DNA from: Escherichia phage vB_EcoS_MM01
Strand: one strand, 5' to 3'
Sequence record: MK373793.1
Length of the DNA stretch: 43,157 bases
Shown here piece after piece: positions 21,825 to 42,012 of this stretch. Each line of letters begins with the position of its first letter. Position 1 is the stretch's first letter. The translations under genes were made by a program, and so were the position numbers. A model generated the notes under the pieces. The model did not search any database, was not told the origin of the DNA, and saw nothing but the letters and a program-made list of their open reading frames with translations.

Positions 21825-21873
21825 TTAGTGTAGAATGGCACAAATGATCAAAACAAACATGAGGCTTTATGAT

Positions 21874-26279: not shown

Positions 26280-26501
26280 TCAACCTCCACAATCGTGGTC
26301 TTTGAAATTCCGGTCAGAGACGTACTGAAATGAGAATGGATATCCAGCCCTAAGTAAAAGCTCCTCACCGCGTTTCTGCGTACCAAAAATATAAACCGAG
26401 TAATTCATCCCGCCTGACTCATAAACAGCCGTACAAGTGCGTTCTGGCATCGTAGAGCACCCACCTAACACCATTGCCGCGATAACGATTAATTTTTTCA
26501 T
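26280..26501 (-). CDS. lipoprotein (superinfection-exclusion candidate)
   Basis: internal ATG of track ORF 26280..26555 gives MKKLIVIAAMVLGGC lipobox; AGGTGA RBS. Confidence 0.65.
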   Translation of the reverse strand: MKKLIVIAAMVLGGCSTMPERTCTAVYESGGMNYSVYIFGTQKRGEELLLRAGYPFSFQYVSDRNFKDHDCGG

Positions 26502-26511
26502 CTTATTCACC

Positions 26512-26616
26512 TTAGAACCCTTTAAAGTTGGAAGCCAGAAGAAGAACCCAAACAAAGAAACCAGTTACAGCAGCGCCGAAGGTGAAGGCCATTACGTTGG
26601 TTGCGAAGTTAGTCAT
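26512..26616 (-). CDS. small membrane peptide (34 aa)
   Basis: MTNFATNVMAFTFGAAVTGFFVWVLLLASNFKGF; preceded on minus strand by motif A/B unit. Confidence 0.4.
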   Translation of the reverse strand: MTNFATNVMAFTFGAAVTGFFVWVLLLASNFKGF

Positions 26617-26681
26617 TTTTGAATCCTTAGTAAGTATTTTTCGTTTCGATGGAGTAATAGTACCGCATCCTTGCGGATTGT

Positions 26682-26701
26682 CTTTAGCAATTCGTGCTAT
26701 T
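26682..26701 (-). repeat. junction motif A copy (aatagcacgaattgctaaag on minus strand)
   Basis: supplies stop codon of upstream methyltransferase-like ORF; motif B at 26641-26650. Confidence 0.6.
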
Positions 26702-27340
26702 CGCCAAGAATACAGCTCTTGCAAATCCACGAGGTGTAAGACTGCGAATTACCTTCGTCTTCTTGCTCTTGCCACCGAGTTTCTTATATTGGTCAGAGAA
26801 ACCATCATTAACATCAACAGGAAGCAACTCAGGCCACTTAAATCCATTACCAGACCAAATGCACGTCTTCTTAGGGTATGCGTCCCTTGACTTTATTAGG
26901 TCGCTAAAAAACGGGTGTAAATCATCTTCAGGCAAGTATCCACCAAACTCGTAAGGGTGGAATGTGTTATCAGGCTTTCGCCACAGAGATGACAGTACAC
27001 TGATTGGATTCTCAATCATATAAGGCACGCCGTACTTCTCAGCCAGGTTAAAAGCAACCTTGCAAGTTTCTGCCGCTTCAGTCTGGAAGTTTGGGTTAGC
27101 TTGGCGCTTACGTTCAAAATGCCTTGACCCACTCACAGCCAAATCAGTGCATGGTGGGAAAGCCAATATGAAATCAGGTTTCACATCAAAATCGAAGTTT
27201 GCATCAATCCATGCGTTAACGTACTTAATGTTATCGTGCTCAACCTTCGCATTCAAATCGCCGTAACTACCGTGGTCAGACTCGTCAAAGTTGAAGCAGT
27301 AACAAGTGTGACCAGCCTCAGCCCTAGTTAGCGCAGCAGA
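26684..27340 (-). pseudogene. cytosine-C5 DNA methyltransferase-like ORF, apparently 5'-truncated
   Basis: PDFILAFPPCTDLAVSG resembles C5-MTase motif IV (PC dipeptide) and MIENP the ENV motif, but no FxGxG motif I; frame open to 27340 with no ATG/GTG, only TTG at 27256. Confidence 0.45.
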
Positions 27341-27359
27341 CTATGACAAGGTTGTCGCA

Positions 27360-27866
27360 ATGCGCGAGGTTCTTTGCAACATTCCGGCTTATGATAGTAT
27401 TGTTAACAGCGAAACGGCTCAGAAGGAGTTATCAATCTTTGGTGAGATTCTCGGTGTTGGTGTAAAGATTCGAATTGACCACGTTGACGTTGTTGATGGA
27501 GTTGTTCATATCACAGATTATAAGACCACAGCAGACGCAAGCCCTGAAGGGTTCGGTAAATCAGCTTTCTCTCATGGATACTTGGCTAAAATGGCATTGC
27601 AGCGCGATCTGTTTGTAAAAGCATTTAACGAGAAGAGGAAGGTAGTCGTTGGTCTTATGGCACAAGAAAAAACTGAACCTTACTTACCCATGAAGTACAC
27701 GCTAACAGATGATCAGCTTCGTATTGGCAGATTGCAGTATCTTGAAGCCCTAGCTACATACAAGAAATGCAAGGAGCTTGATATATGGCCTGGTTACTCA
27801 AATGGGATTACAGAGCAAGAGCTAGTTATCCCTGATTGGGCAACTAAGCAGTATAAAGAAATTTAA
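27360..27866 (+). CDS. PD-(D/E)xK exonuclease (lambda Exo/YqaJ-like), possibly N-terminally truncated
   Basis: catalytic-core-like IDHVDVVDG...ITDYKT near N-terminus; frame opens only at 27312. Confidence 0.55.
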   Translation: MREVLCNIPAYDSIVNSETAQKELSIFGEILGVGVKIRIDHVDVVDGVVHITDYKTTADASPEGFGKSAFSHGYLAKMALQRDLFVKAFNEKRKVVVGLMAQEKTEPYLPMKYTLTDDQLRIGRLQYLEALATYKKCKELDIWPGYSNGITEQELVIPDWATKQYKEI

Positions 27867-30625: not shown

Positions 30626-30644
30626 AATAGCACATTTTGTTAAG
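30626..30644 (+). repeat. junction motif A copy, orphan (aatagcacattttgttaag)
   Basis: plus-oriented between two minus-strand genes; no motif B or plus-strand gene downstream. Confidence 0.5.
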
Positions 30645-30667
30645 TTGCATTGTATCATCTTTCAGGT

Positions 30668-31675: not shown

Positions 31676-32182
31676 TCAAATCGTGCTGTTTTGCTCTGAC
31701 TCTCTCTTTTTCTTATTCTCTTCCTTAATCTTGCGCCATGATCTAGCAGGTGGTTTTTTTGCTAAATCCTCCTTCTTAACAACTCTAAGCATTTCTCGAC
31801 GGTCGCAACGCAATGTTAGTGGCTTACCGTTGCTATCAAATCGCAGATCAGGACGAATGAAGCTAGCTCTATATCCTTCGCCTGTACGCTTGTACTTTCC
31901 GTGCAGCTTCTGCGCGCCTTTCGCTGAGATCATTCCGCGCTTACACCACTCAGAAACTACTGCATGAGTCACATTGGCGGCTTTTGCTAGCTTCGATTTA
32001 CCGCCGTAGAAGTTAAGAACTATCTCAAGCCTTGCGCGTAAACTTGCTCGCACTTCATCCTTCAAAGTGTAGTAGCCATAAGGTCGACTACGTTCTTTCT
32101 TATCTTCGCCTCGCTGGGTTCCGTTATTTCCATTTAATGTACGCTTGTCCACTTCACCAGTTGATTCCGCGATTCTCGTCAT
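31676..32182 (-). CDS. HTH DNA-binding protein (Cro/YdaS-like, putative regulator)
   Basis: GGKSKLAKAANVTHAVVSEWCKRGMIS helix-turn-helix-like segment; basic termini. Confidence 0.45.
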   Translation of the reverse strand: MTRIAESTGEVDKRTLNGNNGTQRGEDKKERSRPYGYYTLKDEVRASLRARLEIVLNFYGGKSKLAKAANVTHAVVSEWCKRGMISAKGAQKLHGKYKRTGEGYRASFIRPDLRFDSNGKPLTLRCDRREMLRVVKKEDLAKKPPARSWRKIKEENKKKRESEQNSTI

Positions 32183-35891: not shown

Positions 35892-37028
35892 ATGGCAACT
35901 GCAAAAATTACCAACGAAGAGCTGCGCGAAGAGCTGGCGAACGGTATGACTAACAAAGCAATCGCAGAGAAGTACGGTATGAATATTCGCAATGTTGAGT
36001 TGCGTCGTAGTAAATTGGCAAAGAGTGGAGAATTGCACGGAAACCCAGGCATCAAAAAGCTAGTTCCTGACGGTTATATGGTTAAGGGAACATCAACGAT
36101 GATTGATGCCGAAGGTAACGAAAAGATTCGCTGGGTTAAAACATCCGTAGATAATGAGCGCCTTGAGGTTTTAATGGAGCAGGCTCGAGAGGCATTTTGC
36201 TCAGAGTTGCCAAAGGCTATTCCATCTGAATCACCGAATGTTAACTTTGATGATAACACACTTGCGATGTATCCAGTTTTTGATTTACACATTGGAGCAA
36301 TGGCACACAAACACGAGTGCGGCGAAAACTACGACACAGCAACAGCCGAGAAAGTAATGAATGGATTCTTTGATTACGCTGTTGATAAGGCGCCAAACTC
36401 TAAGAATGCTGTATTGGTATTGGGTGGCGATTTCCTGCATTACGATTCACTTGAGGCAAAAACACCAGCTTCAGGGCATATCTTAGATAGCGACAGTCGT
36501 TATGCAAAAATTGTTTATGTTGCAATCCGGTCAGTACGTCGTGCAATTTCTCGAATGATGGGGAAGCACCAGAATATCGACATTAAAGTTATAAGCGGAA
36601 ACCATGATGAAGCGGGAATGGTTTGGTTGCGTGCGGCGCTGGCTGCATTTTATGAAGATGAGCCGCGTGTAAGCGTTGACGTTAGCCCTGCCGCTATGAT
36701 GATGACCAGCTTTGGAAGCACGCTTATTGGTTATACTCATGGGCACCAGATGCGTAAAGCTGATACAAGACTGACTGTTATGGCAACTGATTTCCGTAAG
36801 TTGTTTGGGCAAAGTGAGTATGTTTATACACATAGTGGCCATTGGCACTCACAGAAAATTACAGAGACGAATCTTGGTATTGATGAAGTTCACGGCCAGC
36901 TAGGTAGCCCAGATGCGTACTCGGCAAATGGCGGCTGGCGCTCTCAGCGTCAAGCGGCAGTAATCGTTTATCATAAGGAATTTGGCGAGGTTGGTCGCTT
37001 CATCTGTCGCCCAAAAATGTTTAGCTAA
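35892..37028 (+). CDS. calcineurin-like metallophosphoesterase with N-terminal HTH-like domain
   Basis: motifs DLHIG, GGDFLHYD, GNHDE, GHWH in order; N-terminal TNKAIAEKYGMNIRNVELRR resembles an HTH. Confidence 0.65.
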   Translation: MATAKITNEELREELANGMTNKAIAEKYGMNIRNVELRRSKLAKSGELHGNPGIKKLVPDGYMVKGTSTMIDAEGNEKIRWVKTSVDNERLEVLMEQAREAFCSELPKAIPSESPNVNFDDNTLAMYPVFDLHIGAMAHKHECGENYDTATAEKVMNGFFDYAVDKAPNSKNAVLVLGGDFLHYDSLEAKTPASGHILDSDSRYAKIVYVAIRSVRRAISRMMGKHQNIDIKVISGNHDEAGMVWLRAALAAFYEDEPRVSVDVSPAAMMMTSFGSTLIGYTHGHQMRKADTRLTVMATDFRKLFGQSEYVYTHSGHWHSQKITETNLGIDEVHGQLGSPDAYSANGGWRSQRQAAVIVYHKEFGEVGRFICRPKMFS

Positions 37029-37046
37029 TAGCACTTTTTGTTAAAA
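37027..37046 (+). repeat. junction motif A copy (aatagcactttttgttaaaa)
   Basis: begins right after TAA stop; hairpin acccac-gaaa-gtgggt; motif B 37078-37087; ATG 37100. Confidence 0.6.
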
Positions 37047-37099
37047 CGATACCCACGAAAGTGGGTATTATTGTTTTATCGAAACGAGAGGAGATAGAA

Positions 37100-37588
37100 A
37101 TGAATTGGCATGAATTTTTCATATACGATAATGGAACTTTGTTTTGGAAGGTGAAGCCTTCAAGAAGTGTCTTGGTTGGCAGCGTTGCTGGTGGCTTGCA
37201 CTCCGCTGGATATGTTGACTTAAGGTTAAATAAAAAAGCATACTTGTGCCATAGAATTATTTGGGAGATGCATAACGGGATAATACCAGAAGGTATGGAG
37301 ATTGATCATATAAATCACATTAGGGATGACAACAGAATTGAGAATTTGCGACTTGTGAGCAGGCTAGAAAACCATAGAAACAGATCAAAACCAAAAAACA
37401 ATAAAAGCGGATTTACTGGAGTGAGGCAAACGAATAGTGGTAAGTGGACATCTTACATATGCTTAAGGGATGAAAATAACAAGAGGTATATAAAAACATT
37501 ATATTACGGAGATTCTTTTGATTGCGCTGTATCTGCAAGAGTCGAGGCTGTGAAAGGCTTTGGGTTTCATGATAATCACGGGGAGTAA
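37100..37588 (+). CDS. HNH endonuclease with AP2-like DNA-binding domain
   Basis: IDHINHIRDDNRIENLRLVSRLENHRN plus C-terminal GFTGVRQ...GKWTSYI. Confidence 0.65.
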   Translation: MNWHEFFIYDNGTLFWKVKPSRSVLVGSVAGGLHSAGYVDLRLNKKAYLCHRIIWEMHNGIIPEGMEIDHINHIRDDNRIENLRLVSRLENHRNRSKPKNNKSGFTGVRQTNSGKWTSYICLRDENNKRYIKTLYYGDSFDCAVSARVEAVKGFGFHDNHGE

Positions 37589-37594
37589 GAAGGA

Positions 37595-37858
37595 ATGACT
37601 AGAGAGAAATATAACAGAGAAATCATTGGCCTGAATGGCGAAACTGCAATCGTGGACGTATATCGAGTTCTTTCGGCTTTTAATGTGCAAAACCCAATGG
37701 CACAGCACGCAATCAAAAAGCTCCTTTGTGCAGGGTTAAGAGGCCACAAAGACTTAAACGAGGATGTTGATGACATTATCGATTCATTGCAGAAAATGAA
37801 AACCTTCTTAGGTCAGCAGCAAATAGCACAAATTGCTAAAGACAATAATCAAAAGTAA
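37595..37858 (+). CDS. hypothetical protein (87 aa)
   Basis: ORF track; embeds a motif A copy in its C-terminal codons. Confidence 0.45.
   Translation: MTREKYNREIIGLNGETAIVDVYRVLSAFNVQNPMAQHAIKKLLCAGLRGHKDLNEDVDDIIDSLQKMKTFLGQQQIAQIAKDNNQK
37822..37841 (+). repeat. junction motif A copy embedded in coding sequence (aatagcacaaattgctaaag)
   Basis: encodes QIAQIAK; motif B at 37873-37882 precedes next gene. Confidence 0.55.
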
Positions 37859-37892
37859 GTTAATATAACCACATCGAAACGAGATAAACCAA

Positions 37893-38096
37893 ATGAACGA
37901 GAGAGATAAAATGACTAACGTAACACTGAAATGCACATCAAACACTTCTAAGTCCCTGGATTTCGTAGTAGGAAATACTTATGAGGCAGTTGACCGCAAG
38001 GACTCGATGTTTGAGGTGATCAGCGAGAAAGGTTGGTGTTTGATTATGCCGCTGGATGGGCACTTCGTTAAGTTTGGGGTAACAAAACAGAAATAA
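37893..38096 (+). CDS. hypothetical protein (67 aa)
   Basis: ORF track. Confidence 0.45.
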   Translation: MNERDKMTNVTLKCTSNTSKSLDFVVGNTYEAVDRKDSMFEVISEKGWCLIMPLDGHFVKFGVTKQK

Positions 38097-38124
38097 TATA
38101 GCAATATAAAACATAGATATGCGT

Positions 38125-38153
38125 AGGGGTGGCCTTTTGGCTGCCCCTTTTTT
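38125..38153 (+). terminator. rho-independent terminator
   Basis: aggggtggcc-tttt-ggctgcccct imperfect hairpin plus T run. Confidence 0.5.
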
Positions 38154-38228
38154 CGTTCAAATCTTATGTAGTTAAGGTTAGTATTTAGACATTATGTTTA
38201 ACTATTGACAATTTAATGAGGTTTTATT

Positions 38229-38444
38229 ATGCGCGATGTAATTAACGCCGCTACTGCTCTTTCTGGCGGCTCTTCCTTGACTGGAGCTGCTACTGGGCAG
38301 CTTGTTGTTGCTGTTATTGGTCTTATTTTTCTTATTGCATTTGGTTTGTTTGGTGCCTGGCTTAAGTGGAAGGATAGTAAAGCAATTCGCCGCGCGCTAG
38401 AGTCTGGAGACTTGCAGACAGCGTTAAAGCTGAGAGCTAAGTAA
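38229..38444 (+). CDS. holin (possibly pinholin)
   Basis: 71 aa, Gly/Ala-rich hydrophobic segments, charged C-terminus, directly upstream of endolysin. Confidence 0.5.
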   Translation: MRDVINAATALSGGSSLTGAATGQLVVAVIGLIFLIAFGLFGAWLKWKDSKAIRRALESGDLQTALKLRAK

Positions 38445-39578: not shown

Positions 39579-39641
39579 TTTTGATTTCCTTTTGTGTGTC
39601 TCTTTTCGATGAATTAAGAATAGCAAAAGCCCATGATGGGC

Positions 39642-39661
39642 TTTTAACAAAAAGTGCTATT
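39642..39661 (-). repeat. junction motif A copy (aatagcactttttgttaaaa on minus strand)
   Basis: follows TAA stop of upstream gene; hairpin gcccat-catgggc; motif-B variant catcgaaaaga. Confidence 0.6.
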
Positions 39662-41585: not shown

Positions 41586-41658
41586 CTTAATACTCCATCT
41601 CGTTAATATGCGGGCATTATATAACACCCGCTCAGATATGCTTTAACTTTTAGTGCTG

Positions 41659-42012
41659 TTATAGGTATTGCGCTTCGAATTTGTAAGTTTCGCAGAGCGT
41701 CTTAAATCCAACCTCTTCATCTCGATAAAGCTGCCAGGCATTGCCTTCTTTGTCATAAATGTAACCAGCATTCTGACCCAAACCAGAGTGCATATTCACC
41801 TGGAAGCGCTTACCCTCAGTGAAAACTTTAGCAACGCCGCTCTTGTGATTAACCTTTGTACAATACAGAGTCTTAGTTTTAATGTATTTTCCGCGCTCCG
41901 TAAGGTTCTGCCATTTGCCGTTAACCTTGATTTGTTCCACACCATCTTTAACGCGAGCTTTGAATAAATCATTGTCGCTTGAAATCCAGTTTTTACTAAT
42001 TGTAGTAGTCAT
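41659..42012 (-). CDS. hypothetical protein (117 aa)
   Basis: internal ATG of track ORF 41659..42039, coupled to upstream stop. Confidence 0.45.
   Translation of the reverse strand: MTTTISKNWISSDNDLFKARVKDGVEQIKVNGKWQNLTERGKYIKTKTLYCTKVNHKSGVAKVFTEGKRFQVNMHSGLGQNAGYIYDKEGNAWQLYRDEEVGFKTLCETYKFEAQYL

Follow-up and report, generated by a model that had tools for sequence, protein, structure and literature searches.

Direct repeats of 21 nt have been described in phage TLS, where they conform to the consensus aaATAGCACnnnTTGnTAAAA, are oriented with transcription and lie about 76 nt upstream of start codons (PMC11447400). Such repeats have also been noted in T1, Rtp and Rogue1; a stoperator, an enhancer or an UP element have been raised as possible functions of the TLS repeat, and the question was left open (PMC11447400). 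In E. coli, the micF promoter carries a marbox, ACAGCACTGAATGTCAAAAC, which is centred at -41.5 and followed after 18 bp by the hexamer TAGAAT, and Rob contacts the G at -47 and the A at -45. Literature searches for the exact motif, for marbox together with bacteriophage, and for Drexlerviridae together with MarA returned nothing relevant beyond the TLS paper.

In this study, we analysed a stretch of 43,157 nucleotides from Escherichia phage vB_EcoS_MM01 (MK373793.1; hereafter the window), a T1-like (Rtp/ACG-M12-like) coliphage whose sequence, for the greater part of the window, shows 82-87% identity to ACG-M12, ECH1, Rtp and other Braunvirinae (Drexlerviridae). One copy of the repeat, referred to here as motif A, lies within the 3' end of an 87-codon gene. 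Taken as a whole, the evidence makes it likely that this motif serves as upstream box in a promoter of the sigma-70 type, which overlaps the tail of the gene; the box most probably works as a class II marbox. The features of the region are as follows.

37028-37047, + strand: preceding box of a putative promoter, ATAGCACTTTTTGTTAAAAC, followed after 18 bp by TATTAT, with ATCGAAACGA at 37078
37595-37858, + strand: 87-codon gene, a real gene with no function assigned, counterpart of the C-terminal domain of phrog_2452
37822-37841, + strand: motif A, AATAGCACAAATTGCTAAAG, a T1-like 21-nt direct repeat, taken as 37823-37842 (ATAGCACAAATTGCTAAAGA) when read as the marbox-like upstream box of the next gene's putative promoter
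37823-37858, + strand: C-terminal extension IAQIAKDNNQK and stop codon, encoded by the putative promoter (from homologue ends, contigs and reading frames)
37843-37860, + strand: 18-bp spacer from box to -10, holding codons 83-87 and the stop, with no hairpin, unlike many other copies
37861-37866, + strand: putative -10 hexamer TAATAT, where the column consensus is TATAaT
37873-37882, + strand: motif B, ATCGAAACGA, a putative conserved transcript start, with the start placed by geometry only at A37873, which is preceded by C
37911-38096, + strand: DUF7244 gene (probable start), counterpart of T1 gp14 (Pfam PF23896, E = 3e-26)
38125-38148, + strand: terminator-like hairpin and T run, which would close a one-gene transcription unit

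Seven copies of motif A with at most three mismatches were found in the window, against 0.02 expected, and looser patterns gave about 13-14 copies, all co-oriented with the genes. The focal copy, caAATAGCACAAATTGCTAAAG, fits the TLS direct-repeat consensus, with 13 such copies in the window; it is on the strand of its flanking genes, 71 nt upstream of the ATG at 37893 and 89 nt upstream of the ATG at 37911.

The product of the 87-codon gene gave 754 tblastn matches in the phage collection, with homology mainly over residues 5-71, and matched phrog_2452 in PHROG (E = 8e-33). An alignment with homologues, of which the protein database yielded 45, contained 20 invariant columns. Megablast of positions 36900-38300 against phages returned no matches, and blastn and tblastn were needed for this region. 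The possibility that the 87-residue protein is a remnant of ACG-M12 gp15, or of the SU57 'ATPase' at the same position, was ruled out, as BLASTP found no similarity.

The reading frame 37595-37858 is open across motif A, with codons 76-82 (CAA ATA GCA CAA ATT GCT AAA) encoding QIAQIAK, followed by DNNQK and then TAA at 37856-37858. A preliminary description of this DNA had placed a motif A copy at 37822-37841, embedded in this frame, and AATAGCACAAATTGCTAAAG was indeed present there, within codons 76-83 and in the sole frame of the motif that is free of stops; the other two frames are closed by TAG at motif bases 3-5 and by TAA at bases 16-18. The codon before the tail is CAA (Q76, 37820-37822), while other frame-2 junctions carry TAA at that position.

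The proposal that the gene had been extended over an ancestral junction element was borne out by the shorter homologues, which end just before the box or at the stops of the box. The closest of these, in IMM-001 and P0010-P0012 (74-76 aa), end in ...LEQTK or ...LGQTK, in alignment with the last codon preceding the box of the window. The TAG of the box is the stop of the homologues in phiEB49, JK06 and vB_EcoS-2006IV, and the homologue in Sf12, which ends in ...NSTNC*, stops at the TAA of the box. In an alignment of seven phages, AATAGCA marks a sharp onset of sequence homology. The same tail, (Q/K)IA(Q/R/L)IAKDNNQK or a close variant, was found in nine metagenomic relatives of 76-93% identity, and the layout was identical in the six contigs examined of these nine. 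A tail conserved without the nucleotide motif, which would have pointed to coincidence, was looked for among the homologues and none was found; the link between motif and tail is therefore not coincidental.

Stop codon use at other boxes places the focal junction in context. Among the upstream genes of three genomes, 11 stop at the TAG of the box, 8 at the TAA of the box and 10 at an abutting TAA, so that 29 of the 34 boxes with an upstream gene supply or directly abut the stop codon of that gene; four of the remaining genes stop earlier, and one, at the focal copy only, reads through. Among the tail-bearing relatives, variable third codon positions numbered 0 of 6 in the box, 10 of 16 in the part upstream of it (Fisher p = 0.012 for box against upstream) and 4 of 5 in the spacer; the three variable columns inside the box are all second codon positions. 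Selection across this stretch acts on the DNA and not on the peptide: with synonymous sites frozen in the box and variable around it, the box has a function as DNA despite being translated here. On comparison of the sequences, the tail IAQIAKDNNQK appears to be a tolerated by-product of read-through. Two relatives of the lineage carry single changes at consensus positions of the embedded copy (GAAC for GCAC, and TTGATAAA), and the focal embedded copy may thus be under weaker constraint.

Each motif A copy lies 18 bp upstream of a TATAAT-like hexamer, with CA/TCGAAACGA (motif B) 7 nt further on. Alignment of 50 sites from the window, ACG-M12 and Rtp gave AAATAGCAC, three variable W-rich bases, TTGCTAAA, a variable stretch of 19-20 nt and TATAaT, then a gap of 6 nt and CATCgAAACga. 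Of the 48 boxes from three genomes, 36 are followed at exactly 18 bp by a -10-like hexamer, for which the background rate is 2.1% per position; the same was seen at 7 of 10 boxes in T1 and 12 of 16 in one further contig. Motif B had been placed at 37873-37882, and ATCGAAACGA is present at these positions; with up to one mismatch it occurs 10 times in the window, against 2.15 expected. TTGCTA was considered as a -35 hexamer and ruled out, being 22 bp from the -10. The focal promoter was not called by a consensus sigma-70 scan, which is consistent with a promoter without a usable -35. Since the searchable literature holds no transcription-start, transcriptome or expression data for T1-like phages, we infer the promoter activity and the +1 position of the box promoters. 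The preceding box promoter (37028-37047) probably drives both an HNH endonuclease gene and the 87-codon gene.

The start codon of the downstream gene had been given as 37893. An ATG is present there, but a second ATG in the same frame, at 37911, is the more likely candidate for the conserved start: alignments show no ATG at the equivalent of 37893 in ACG-M12, SU57 and two metagenomic contigs, and in the longer, 67-residue version the match to Pfam DUF7244 starts only at residue 10. From these alignments, the DUF7244 gene probably starts at 37911. If the boxes are indeed marbox promoters, this would improve the annotation of promoters and start codons in such genomes, as here for the starts of the DUF7244 and DUF3987 genes.

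Two published marbox consensus strings, AYnGCACnnWnnRYYAAAYn (AYNGCACNNWNNRYYAAAY) and gcannwwntgnnaaa (GCANNWWNTGNNAAA), both checked against the literature, were compared with the window. Exact matches to GCANNWWNTGNNAAA numbered 11 (1.08 expected), each of which is a motif A copy; AYNGCACNNWNNRYYAAAY with at most one mismatch gave 15 matches (1.03 expected), 13 of which are motif A. The focal box ATAGCACAAATTGCTAAAGA has no mismatch to GCANNWWNTGNNAAA and one to AYNGCACNNWNNRYYAAAY, at the Y of position 19, where micF differs as well, and it has 15 of 20 bases in common with the micF marbox, which also has the same geometry relative to its -10. Its GCAC...TAAA reads toward the downstream gene, and the box would span -50 to -31 if +1 is the putative start at 37873. 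A weight matrix built from phage sites only gave consensus-like top matches in forward orientation upstream of micF, fumC, inaA and nfo, and in reverse orientation at marRAB, where the comparison of the matrix-found E. coli boxes with published sources covered micF and mar only; no convincing box was found by this matrix at the sodA promoter. The distance from the matrix-found box to a -10-like hexamer is 18 bp at micF, inaA and nfo and 17 bp at fumC. The phage box is more conserved than marbox recognition needs, at ATA of positions 1-3 and TT of positions 11-12.

A tblastn search of the window with MarA, SoxS and the N-terminus of Rob (approximate query sequences) gave only noise, and a Pfam scan of 20 ORFs of the window found no AraC-type or HTH_18 domain. 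With no phage-encoded protein of the MarA type found in the window, host MarA, SoxS or Rob would be the likeliest activators. The same architecture was found in two unrelated enteric podoviruses, Murrayvirus IME_EC2 and Hungariovirus C130_2, as well as in Lw1 and RB16, which are T4-like. IME_EC2 and C130_2 have no regulator in common with the window; they do have a T1-like replication module in common with it, so that the common boxes could partly reflect transfer of this module. The hosts of the relatives are Enterobacterales, with one record, 95% identical to C130_2, naming Stutzerimonas. Without stress, most of the Rob in the cell is sequestered and little MarA or SoxS is present, a difficulty for the host-activator reading given that the phage multiplies rapidly in ordinary broth.

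Other readings of the motif were weighed against that of a class II marbox. The preliminary description had also suggested that the true stop lies upstream and that the annotated C-terminus is spurious. The protein would then end before the motif, and sequencing error, frameshifting or a stop that went unrecognised would account for the extension. Homology to most relatives does end near residues 71-76, and a single C-to-T change at 37820 would restore TAA, as at the other frame-2 junctions; the frame, however, contains no stop before 37856, the open frame and tail recur in independent assemblies from at least six samples, and gene callers give products of 87-88 residues on the relatives' contigs. 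With nine relatives sharing the tail, this suggestion has to be abandoned as exceedingly improbable. That the element is no promoter at all, but a repressor-binding stoperator, a processing or termination signal, or merely a recombination joint between mosaic modules, is in our view very improbable. Stoperators are mentioned by the TLS authors (PMC11447400), homology between phages begins at the box, and hairpins are enriched in the spacers (36% of sites, against 10% of shuffles). The -10 consensus at a fixed 18 bp, the conserved CA start context and the ribosome-binding site and ATG that follow speak for a promoter instead, and the virulence of the phage also counts against this reading. The abrupt onset of homology and the spacer hairpins suggest that the boxes may serve as module boundaries, a role which fits the promoter reading and does not replace it.

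If the element is a promoter, the box could be read by something other than a MarA-type protein. A dimeric helix-turn-helix regulator encoded by the phage might use motif A as its operator, formed by the inverted repeat TAGCA-N5-TGCTA centred near -42, comparable to lambda cI at PRM, and the candidate would be a Cro/CI-type protein (31679-32182, minus strand; phrog_2856, T1 gp23 / Rtp52). In copies of the TTGCTA class the box is a 5-bp inverted repeat with its arms one helical turn apart; the regulator gene, annotated in T1, Rtp and ACG-M12, is divergent from the helicase gene, and a box lies 12 nt from its start codon. Against this, TTGTTA breaks the repeat in about one third of copies, conservation is asymmetric (AATAGCAC on the left, TTGYTAAA on the right), IME_EC2 and C130_2 have no homologue of the regulator despite the same box and 18-bp spacing, and the copies are nearly all that the published marbox consensus, itself asymmetric, picks out, which leaves such an operator unlikely. 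A palindromic box recognised by a dimeric CRP-, FNR- or cI-type activator of class II was downgraded on the asymmetry, the TTGTTA class and the lack of the phage regulator in IME_EC2 and C130_2. An enhancer that needs no activator, resembling an UP element and read by RNA polymerase itself through the alpha C-terminal domain or sigma, would make the likeness to a marbox incidental. UP elements contain TTTT-N3-AAA, and TTTT-N3-AAA occurs in copies of the TTT class; the flanks are A/T-rich, the box would lie at -50 to -31, and the phage grows well without activator-inducing stress. The option was also raised by the TLS authors (PMC11447400). It is quite unlikely here, as the invariant positions contain G/C (GCAC, TG), the box reaches into the -35 region, every specified position of gcannwwntgnnaaa is matched, and the spacing to the -10 equals that of micF, inaA and nfo.

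Under the preferred reading as a class II marbox promoter, the box at 37823-37842 would be followed by the 18-bp spacer, TAATAT at 37861-37866 and a start at A37873 of CA/TCGAAACGA, and transcription of the DUF7244 gene, which probably starts at 37911, would run from this promoter to the terminator of 38125-38148. A monomeric activator of the MarA/SoxS/Rob type, with two helix-turn-helix motifs, may bind to GCAC, at about -47 to -44, and to TAAA, at about -36 to -33, and replace the -35 contact; as at micF, it may recruit RNA polymerase through the alpha C-terminal domain and region 4 of sigma. The box normally also ends the upstream gene, with TAG and TAA in two frames and the third usually preceded by TAA. 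In the window and a small lineage of relatives, the 87-codon gene enters the box in the open frame, with CAA at the position that TAA takes in other such junctions, and it therefore reads on for 11 codons, IAQIAKDNNQK, through the box into the spacer.

The overlap alone is ordinary, as promoters over the 3' end of a preceding gene are common in compact phage genomes; its value is that of a clean natural experiment, with synonymous sites fixed in the box and variable on either side. The proposed marbox identity of the box is the larger point, and the match would explain a T1-like repeat without known function. It is possible, if still a little short of probable, that the T1-like 21-nt repeats in general are class II marboxes and that most promoters of T1-like phages are run by host MarA, SoxS or Rob, likewise those of Murrayvirus and Hungariovirus and a few cassettes of RB16 and Lw1. 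If true, expression of the phage genes would be coupled to the mar/sox/rob state of the host. The activators that increase intrinsic antibiotic resistance would then be needed by a large phage group, to which many candidates for therapy against E. coli and Klebsiella belong. This would bear on phage-antibiotic combinations and on the effects of salicylate, bile salts or oxidants on phage yield.

Several known systems resemble this arrangement. As in T4 middle promoters, an activator box would replace the -35 contact upstream of a good -10, many times in one lytic genome; in T4, the phage's own MotA, with AsiA, reads the MotA box, whose centre is near -30, whereas the box here is centred near -41 with no evident phage activator. 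The PeSL cassettes of T4-type phages are said, in work by Arbiol et al. from 2010, to be repeated promoter units at the borders of mosaic modules, reportedly plain sigma-70 early promoters with a small stem-loop between an upstream element and the -10; the sequence here is different. The likeness to the TLS repeats extends to the consensus, the three classes of central triplet, the orientation with transcription, the position tens of bases upstream of starts and the many copies per genome, a few of the TLS copies lying wholly within genes; the fixed -10 hexamer, the conserved transcript start, the built-in stops and the marbox match are not described in the TLS paper (PMC11447400). Compared with E. 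coli marboxes, the phage boxes are on a virulent genome, in about 14-21 copies that are much closer to one another, and have invariant extra bases that double as stop codons. With the class II marbox promoters of micF, fumC, inaA and nfo they have in common an asymmetric 20-bp box with GCAC and YAAA in forward orientation, which overlaps a poor -35, has its centre near -41 and is separated from the -10 by 18 bp.

The copy of motif A, a repeated element of about 20 nt, at 37822-37841 (AATAGCACAAATTGCTAAAG) lies within coding sequence, as stated in the preliminary description, and ORF 37595-37858 is open across it, giving a product of 87 residues with the C-terminal end ...GQQQIAQIAKDNNQK. Two of the three frames of motif A are closed (AAT AGC ACn AAT TGC TAA, and the TAG at bases 3-5); the third, ATA GCA CAA ATT GCT AAA, is the frame used by this ORF. 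At up to three mismatches, seven copies were found in the window against 0.02 expected, and looser patterns gave about 13, all oriented like the adjacent genes, a number far above chance. Motif B, ATCGAAACGA, follows at 37873-37882 as described and is overrepresented in the window (10 matches against 2.15 expected). The start codon proposed at 37893 held up in part: an in-frame ATG is present there, but only the second ATG, at 37911 and preceded by GAGAGAGA, is conserved in relatives. Gene callers disagree on the start of this DUF7244 gene among related contigs (products of 57-67 residues).

Features of the focal junction
37823-37842, plus strand: box, ATAGCACAAATTGCTAAAGA
37843-37860, plus strand: spacer of 18 bp
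37861-37866, plus strand: -10 hexamer, TAATAT
37873, plus strand: +1, the A after a C, placed from the geometry
37911, plus strand: ATG, probable start codon of the DUF7244 gene
38125-38148, plus strand: terminator, hairpin and T run

Motif A is a member of a repeat family known from earlier work on T1-like phages: when phage TLS was re-annotated in 2024, a 21-nt direct repeat, aaATAGCACnnnTTGnTAAAA, was reported in 21 copies (18 intergenic), oriented with transcription about 76 nt upstream of start codons, divided into classes A, T and G by the central triplet, and present also in T1, Rtp and Rogue1; stoperators, enhancer sites and UP elements were suggested, and function was listed among the open questions (PMC11447400). 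The motif A copies of the window match this description, including the three classes.

The same copies fit the marbox, the E. coli binding site of MarA, SoxS and Rob, published as AYnGCACnnWnnRYYAAAY(n) and gcannwwntgnnaaa. In the window, GCANNWWNTGNNAAA matched exactly at 11 sites (1.08 expected), all 11 being motif A, and AYNGCACNNWNNRYYAAAY with up to one mismatch at 15 sites (1.03 expected), of which 13 were motif A. No published link between marboxes and phage promoters or T1-like repeats was found.

In an alignment of 50 sites taken from the window, ACG-M12 and Rtp, the box is near-invariant except for three central A/T-rich bases; it is followed by a variable stretch and by a hexamer whose base frequencies (T 0.72, A 0.82, T 0.82, A 0.62, A 0.48, T 0.90) are those of a classic -10. 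Six bases beyond the hexamer stands C-A-T-C-g-A-A-A-C-g-a, succeeded by purine-rich ribosome-binding sequences and ATG. When 48 boxes were collected by the E. coli marbox consensus alone and then examined for spacing, a -10-like hexamer lay exactly 18 bp past the 20-mer in 36 (background 2.1 % per position), and the same spacing was seen in T1 (7/10 boxes) and in a TLS-size contig (12/16). No usable -35 hexamer was present at 17 bp; TTGCTA was ruled out as a -35 since it lies 22 bp from the -10, too distant. For T1-like phages, neither transcriptome data nor mapped start sites were found in the literature. The focal element is very probably a promoter.

Several other features of these sites were observed. 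About the first ten bases of the transcript, CA/TCGAAACGA, show conservation between promoters of the window (e.g. at 1379, 14871, 26641 on the minus strand, 34745 and 37078; focal 37873-37882) and across T1-like phages, C130_2 and Lw1, not in IME_EC2; initiation context, RNA stability or translation are possible roles. The 18-bp spacer often holds a small G+C-rich hairpin (37048-37069; 39634-39652, minus strand; 1344-1363; 26670-26683, minus strand); among 44 sites, 36 % have predicted folding energies of -4 kcal/mol or below, compared with 10 % of shuffles. A number of these hairpins lead into a T stretch like terminators, so that terminator and promoter are apparently nested; the focal spacer lacks a hairpin because it is coding. 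A further marbox-like site at 41640-41659 (minus strand), ACAGCACTAAAAGTTAAAG, found by the E. coli consensus only and one of the two AYNGCACNNWNNRYYAAAY matches outside motif A, has a perfect TATAAT 18 bp downstream and is probably another promoter; its predicted start falls within the GTG (41627) listed as the first codon of the DUF3987 gene, which therefore probably begins further downstream. In the window, ACG-M12 and Rtp alike, the first bases of the large tail gene (21835-21853, plus strand), ATG GCA CAA ATG ATC AAA A, fit the marbox consensus at one mismatch; no -10 hexamer follows at 18 bp, and the match is probably a chance product of the coding sequence. The plus-strand box at 30627-30646 separates the tail-fibre gene from the primase gene in a stretch of minus-strand genes and adjoins a hairpin that resembles the terminator of the primase gene. 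Possible readings of this copy, which is kept in all three genomes (32098 in ACG-M12, 33762 in Rtp) and has no -10 hexamer at the 18-bp distance, are a class I-like box in reverse orientation, an antisense promoter and a decoy.

The ORF encodes a real protein of 87 residues: 754 tblastn matches were obtained in phages, with homology chiefly over residues 5-71, and 20 columns were invariant among 24 aligned homologues. The protein aligns with the C-terminal part of phrog_2452 (positions 151-225 of 235) and, among longer PHROG profiles, including phrog_17613 (annotated 'ATPase'), only with the last 75 or so positions, and is therefore a free-standing C-terminal domain; the homologue names 'ATPase' and 'phosphodiesterase' look unfounded.

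The ends of the homologues are instructive. Those of IMM-001 and P0010-P0012 (74-76 aa) terminate with ...LEQTK or ...LGQTK, the final residue aligning with the last pre-box codon of the window; IMM-001 and P0010 have a different genomic context and no box 3' of the gene. In phiEB49 (gp69), JK06 (JK_43) and vB_EcoS-2006IV the gene stop is the TAG of a box, and Sf12 gp69 enters the box in the other closed frame to end in ...INSTNC* at its TAA; the upstream genes of SU57 and ACG-M12, which are unrelated, likewise end in ...NSTNC*. In a seven-phage alignment, similarity begins abruptly at AATAGCA and continues past the -10 to the transcript start, indicating that the box is older and fixed and that the reading frame entering it is variable.

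Stop-codon use was then counted over the 48 boxes of the three genomes, 34 of which are preceded by a gene in the same orientation.

Position of the upstream gene stop at 34 boxes
TAG of the box: 11 boxes
TAA of the box: 8 boxes
TAA abutting the box: 10 boxes
Earlier, before the box: 4 boxes
Read through the box: 1 box, the focal copy

The two built-in stop codons thus serve 19/34 upstream genes. The codon before ATA is CAA in the focal copy and TAA at the five other same-frame junctions. Two invariant bases exceed what a marbox needs, the A completing TAG and the T starting TAA; we infer that the box is conserved beyond that need because these bases double as stop codons, and that this dual use explains the tight 'junction element' of the preliminary description.

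The read-through tail, the last 11 codons (IAQIAKDNNQK), persists in relatives: (Q/K)IA(Q/R/L)IAKDNNQK or close variants occur in nine metagenomic proteins of 76-93 % identity. All six contigs read share an 87-88-codon gene followed by the DUF7244 gene, most with a T1-type holin gene next; the upstream neighbour is an HNH endonuclease in 3/6, as in the window, and a protein of about 376 residues without a Pfam match in the other 3/6. When these contigs were aligned with the window as DNA, third positions varied in 10/16 codons before the box, 0/6 inside it and 4/5 after it (before versus inside, Fisher one-sided p = 0.012). All three variable columns in the box fall at the second position of a codon. 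The variable position of the box itself accounts for one of them (Q, R or L), and each of the other two is due to one change in one contig (GCAC to GAAC and, in a different contig, GCT to GAT). This pattern fits selection on a DNA site, the opposite of selection on protein.

Two explanations had been offered, extension of the gene over an ancestral junction element or a spurious C-terminus. The spurious C-terminus is rejected, as nine relatives carry the tail and the six contigs share the gene. The refuting case named in the preliminary description, a homologue conserving the tail in the absence of the nucleotide motif, was looked for and not found. Extension over a pre-existing element is upheld by the fixed box and by the homologues that stop before or at it. 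The last 11 codons of the gene are promoter DNA, and such an overlap is ordinary though rare (1/34 junctions in three genomes).

The window is a T1-like coliphage of the Rtp/ACG-M12 group (Drexlerviridae, Braunvirinae), with 82-87 % identity to its relatives across most of its length (Megablast); the segment 37319-38300 has no DNA-level counterpart in the closest ones. The place of the 87-codon gene is taken in ACG-M12 and SU57 by genes for a polynucleotide kinase and for a product annotated 'ATPase', and in Rtp a gp14-like gene lies directly 3' of the exonuclease gene, so that at this position a variable slot precedes a conserved promoter. Elsewhere (region 26280-27866), the exonuclease VIII gene, set against those of ACG-M12 and Rtp, apparently retains just the C-terminal PDDEXK part (27360-27866; DUF3799 positions 95-227 of 233), and the space beside the remainder is filled by a methyltransferase-like ORF (26684-27256, minus strand) whose stop is the TAA of a box.

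An activator could come from the phage or the host. No tblastn match to MarA, SoxS or Rob was found in the window with approximate query sequences, nor any Pfam match to an AraC-type domain in the 20 window ORFs scanned; the sole evident regulator, of Cro/CI type (phrog_2856), is encoded divergently from the helicase gene. A viral-contig scan with ATAGCACNNNTTGCTAAA matched mainly T1-sized contigs (5-12 copies each), and also Enterobacteria phage IME_EC2 (Murrayvirus), Escherichia phage C130_2 (Hungariovirus) and the T4-like phages Lw1 and RB16. These T4-like phages have two copies near dda and dexA, one with a terminator between box and -10. The arrangement of box, 18 bp and TATAGT recurs in the two podovirus genera, where 5/7 boxes of IME_EC2 and 6/8 of C130_2 have a -10-like hexamer at 18 bp. 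Both phages have only replication/recombination genes in common with the window and lack the phrog_2856 regulator, which speaks for a factor of the enterobacterial hosts that they share. As caveats, both podoviruses have a T1-like replication module in common with the window, Stutzerimonas is the recorded host of a phage 95 % identical to C130_2, and Rob is reportedly sequestered for the most part when inducers are absent. Judged from sequence, action of MarA, SoxS or Rob on the box may be put at about an even chance.

A by-product of the focal case is a specific, testable identity for the T1-like repeat, that of a putative class II marbox promoter. A weight matrix built from 54 phage sites only was scanned over E. 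coli regulatory regions; no convincing box was found for sodA, and the top matches were as follows.

Top matches of the phage-derived matrix in E. coli
micF, ACAGCACTGAATGTCAAAAC, forward: TAGAAT at 18 bp
fumC, ATGGCACGAAAGACCAAACA, no consensus mismatches, forward: -10-like hexamer at 17 bp
inaA, ACGACACGTTTCATTAAGAT, forward: TATAGT at 18 bp
nfo, ATCGCATAAACCACTACATC, forward: TATCAT at 18 bp
marRAB, ATGCCACGTTTTGCTAAATC, reverse: no -10-like hexamer

Agreement with published sources was compared for micF and mar only; fumC, inaA and nfo we take to be class II marbox promoters. In this class the box is forward and overlaps the -35. The mar box shares 16/19 compared bases with the phage T-class box. 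The micF box is centred at -41.5, with GCAC as A site and CAAA as B site, and Rob contacts G -47 and A -45; the phage GCAC lies at -47 to -44 from the inferred +1. The E. coli micF promoter, ACAGCACTGAATGTCAAAAC followed by 18 bp and TAGAAT, has 15/20 box bases in common with the focal box and is alike in orientation and spacing.
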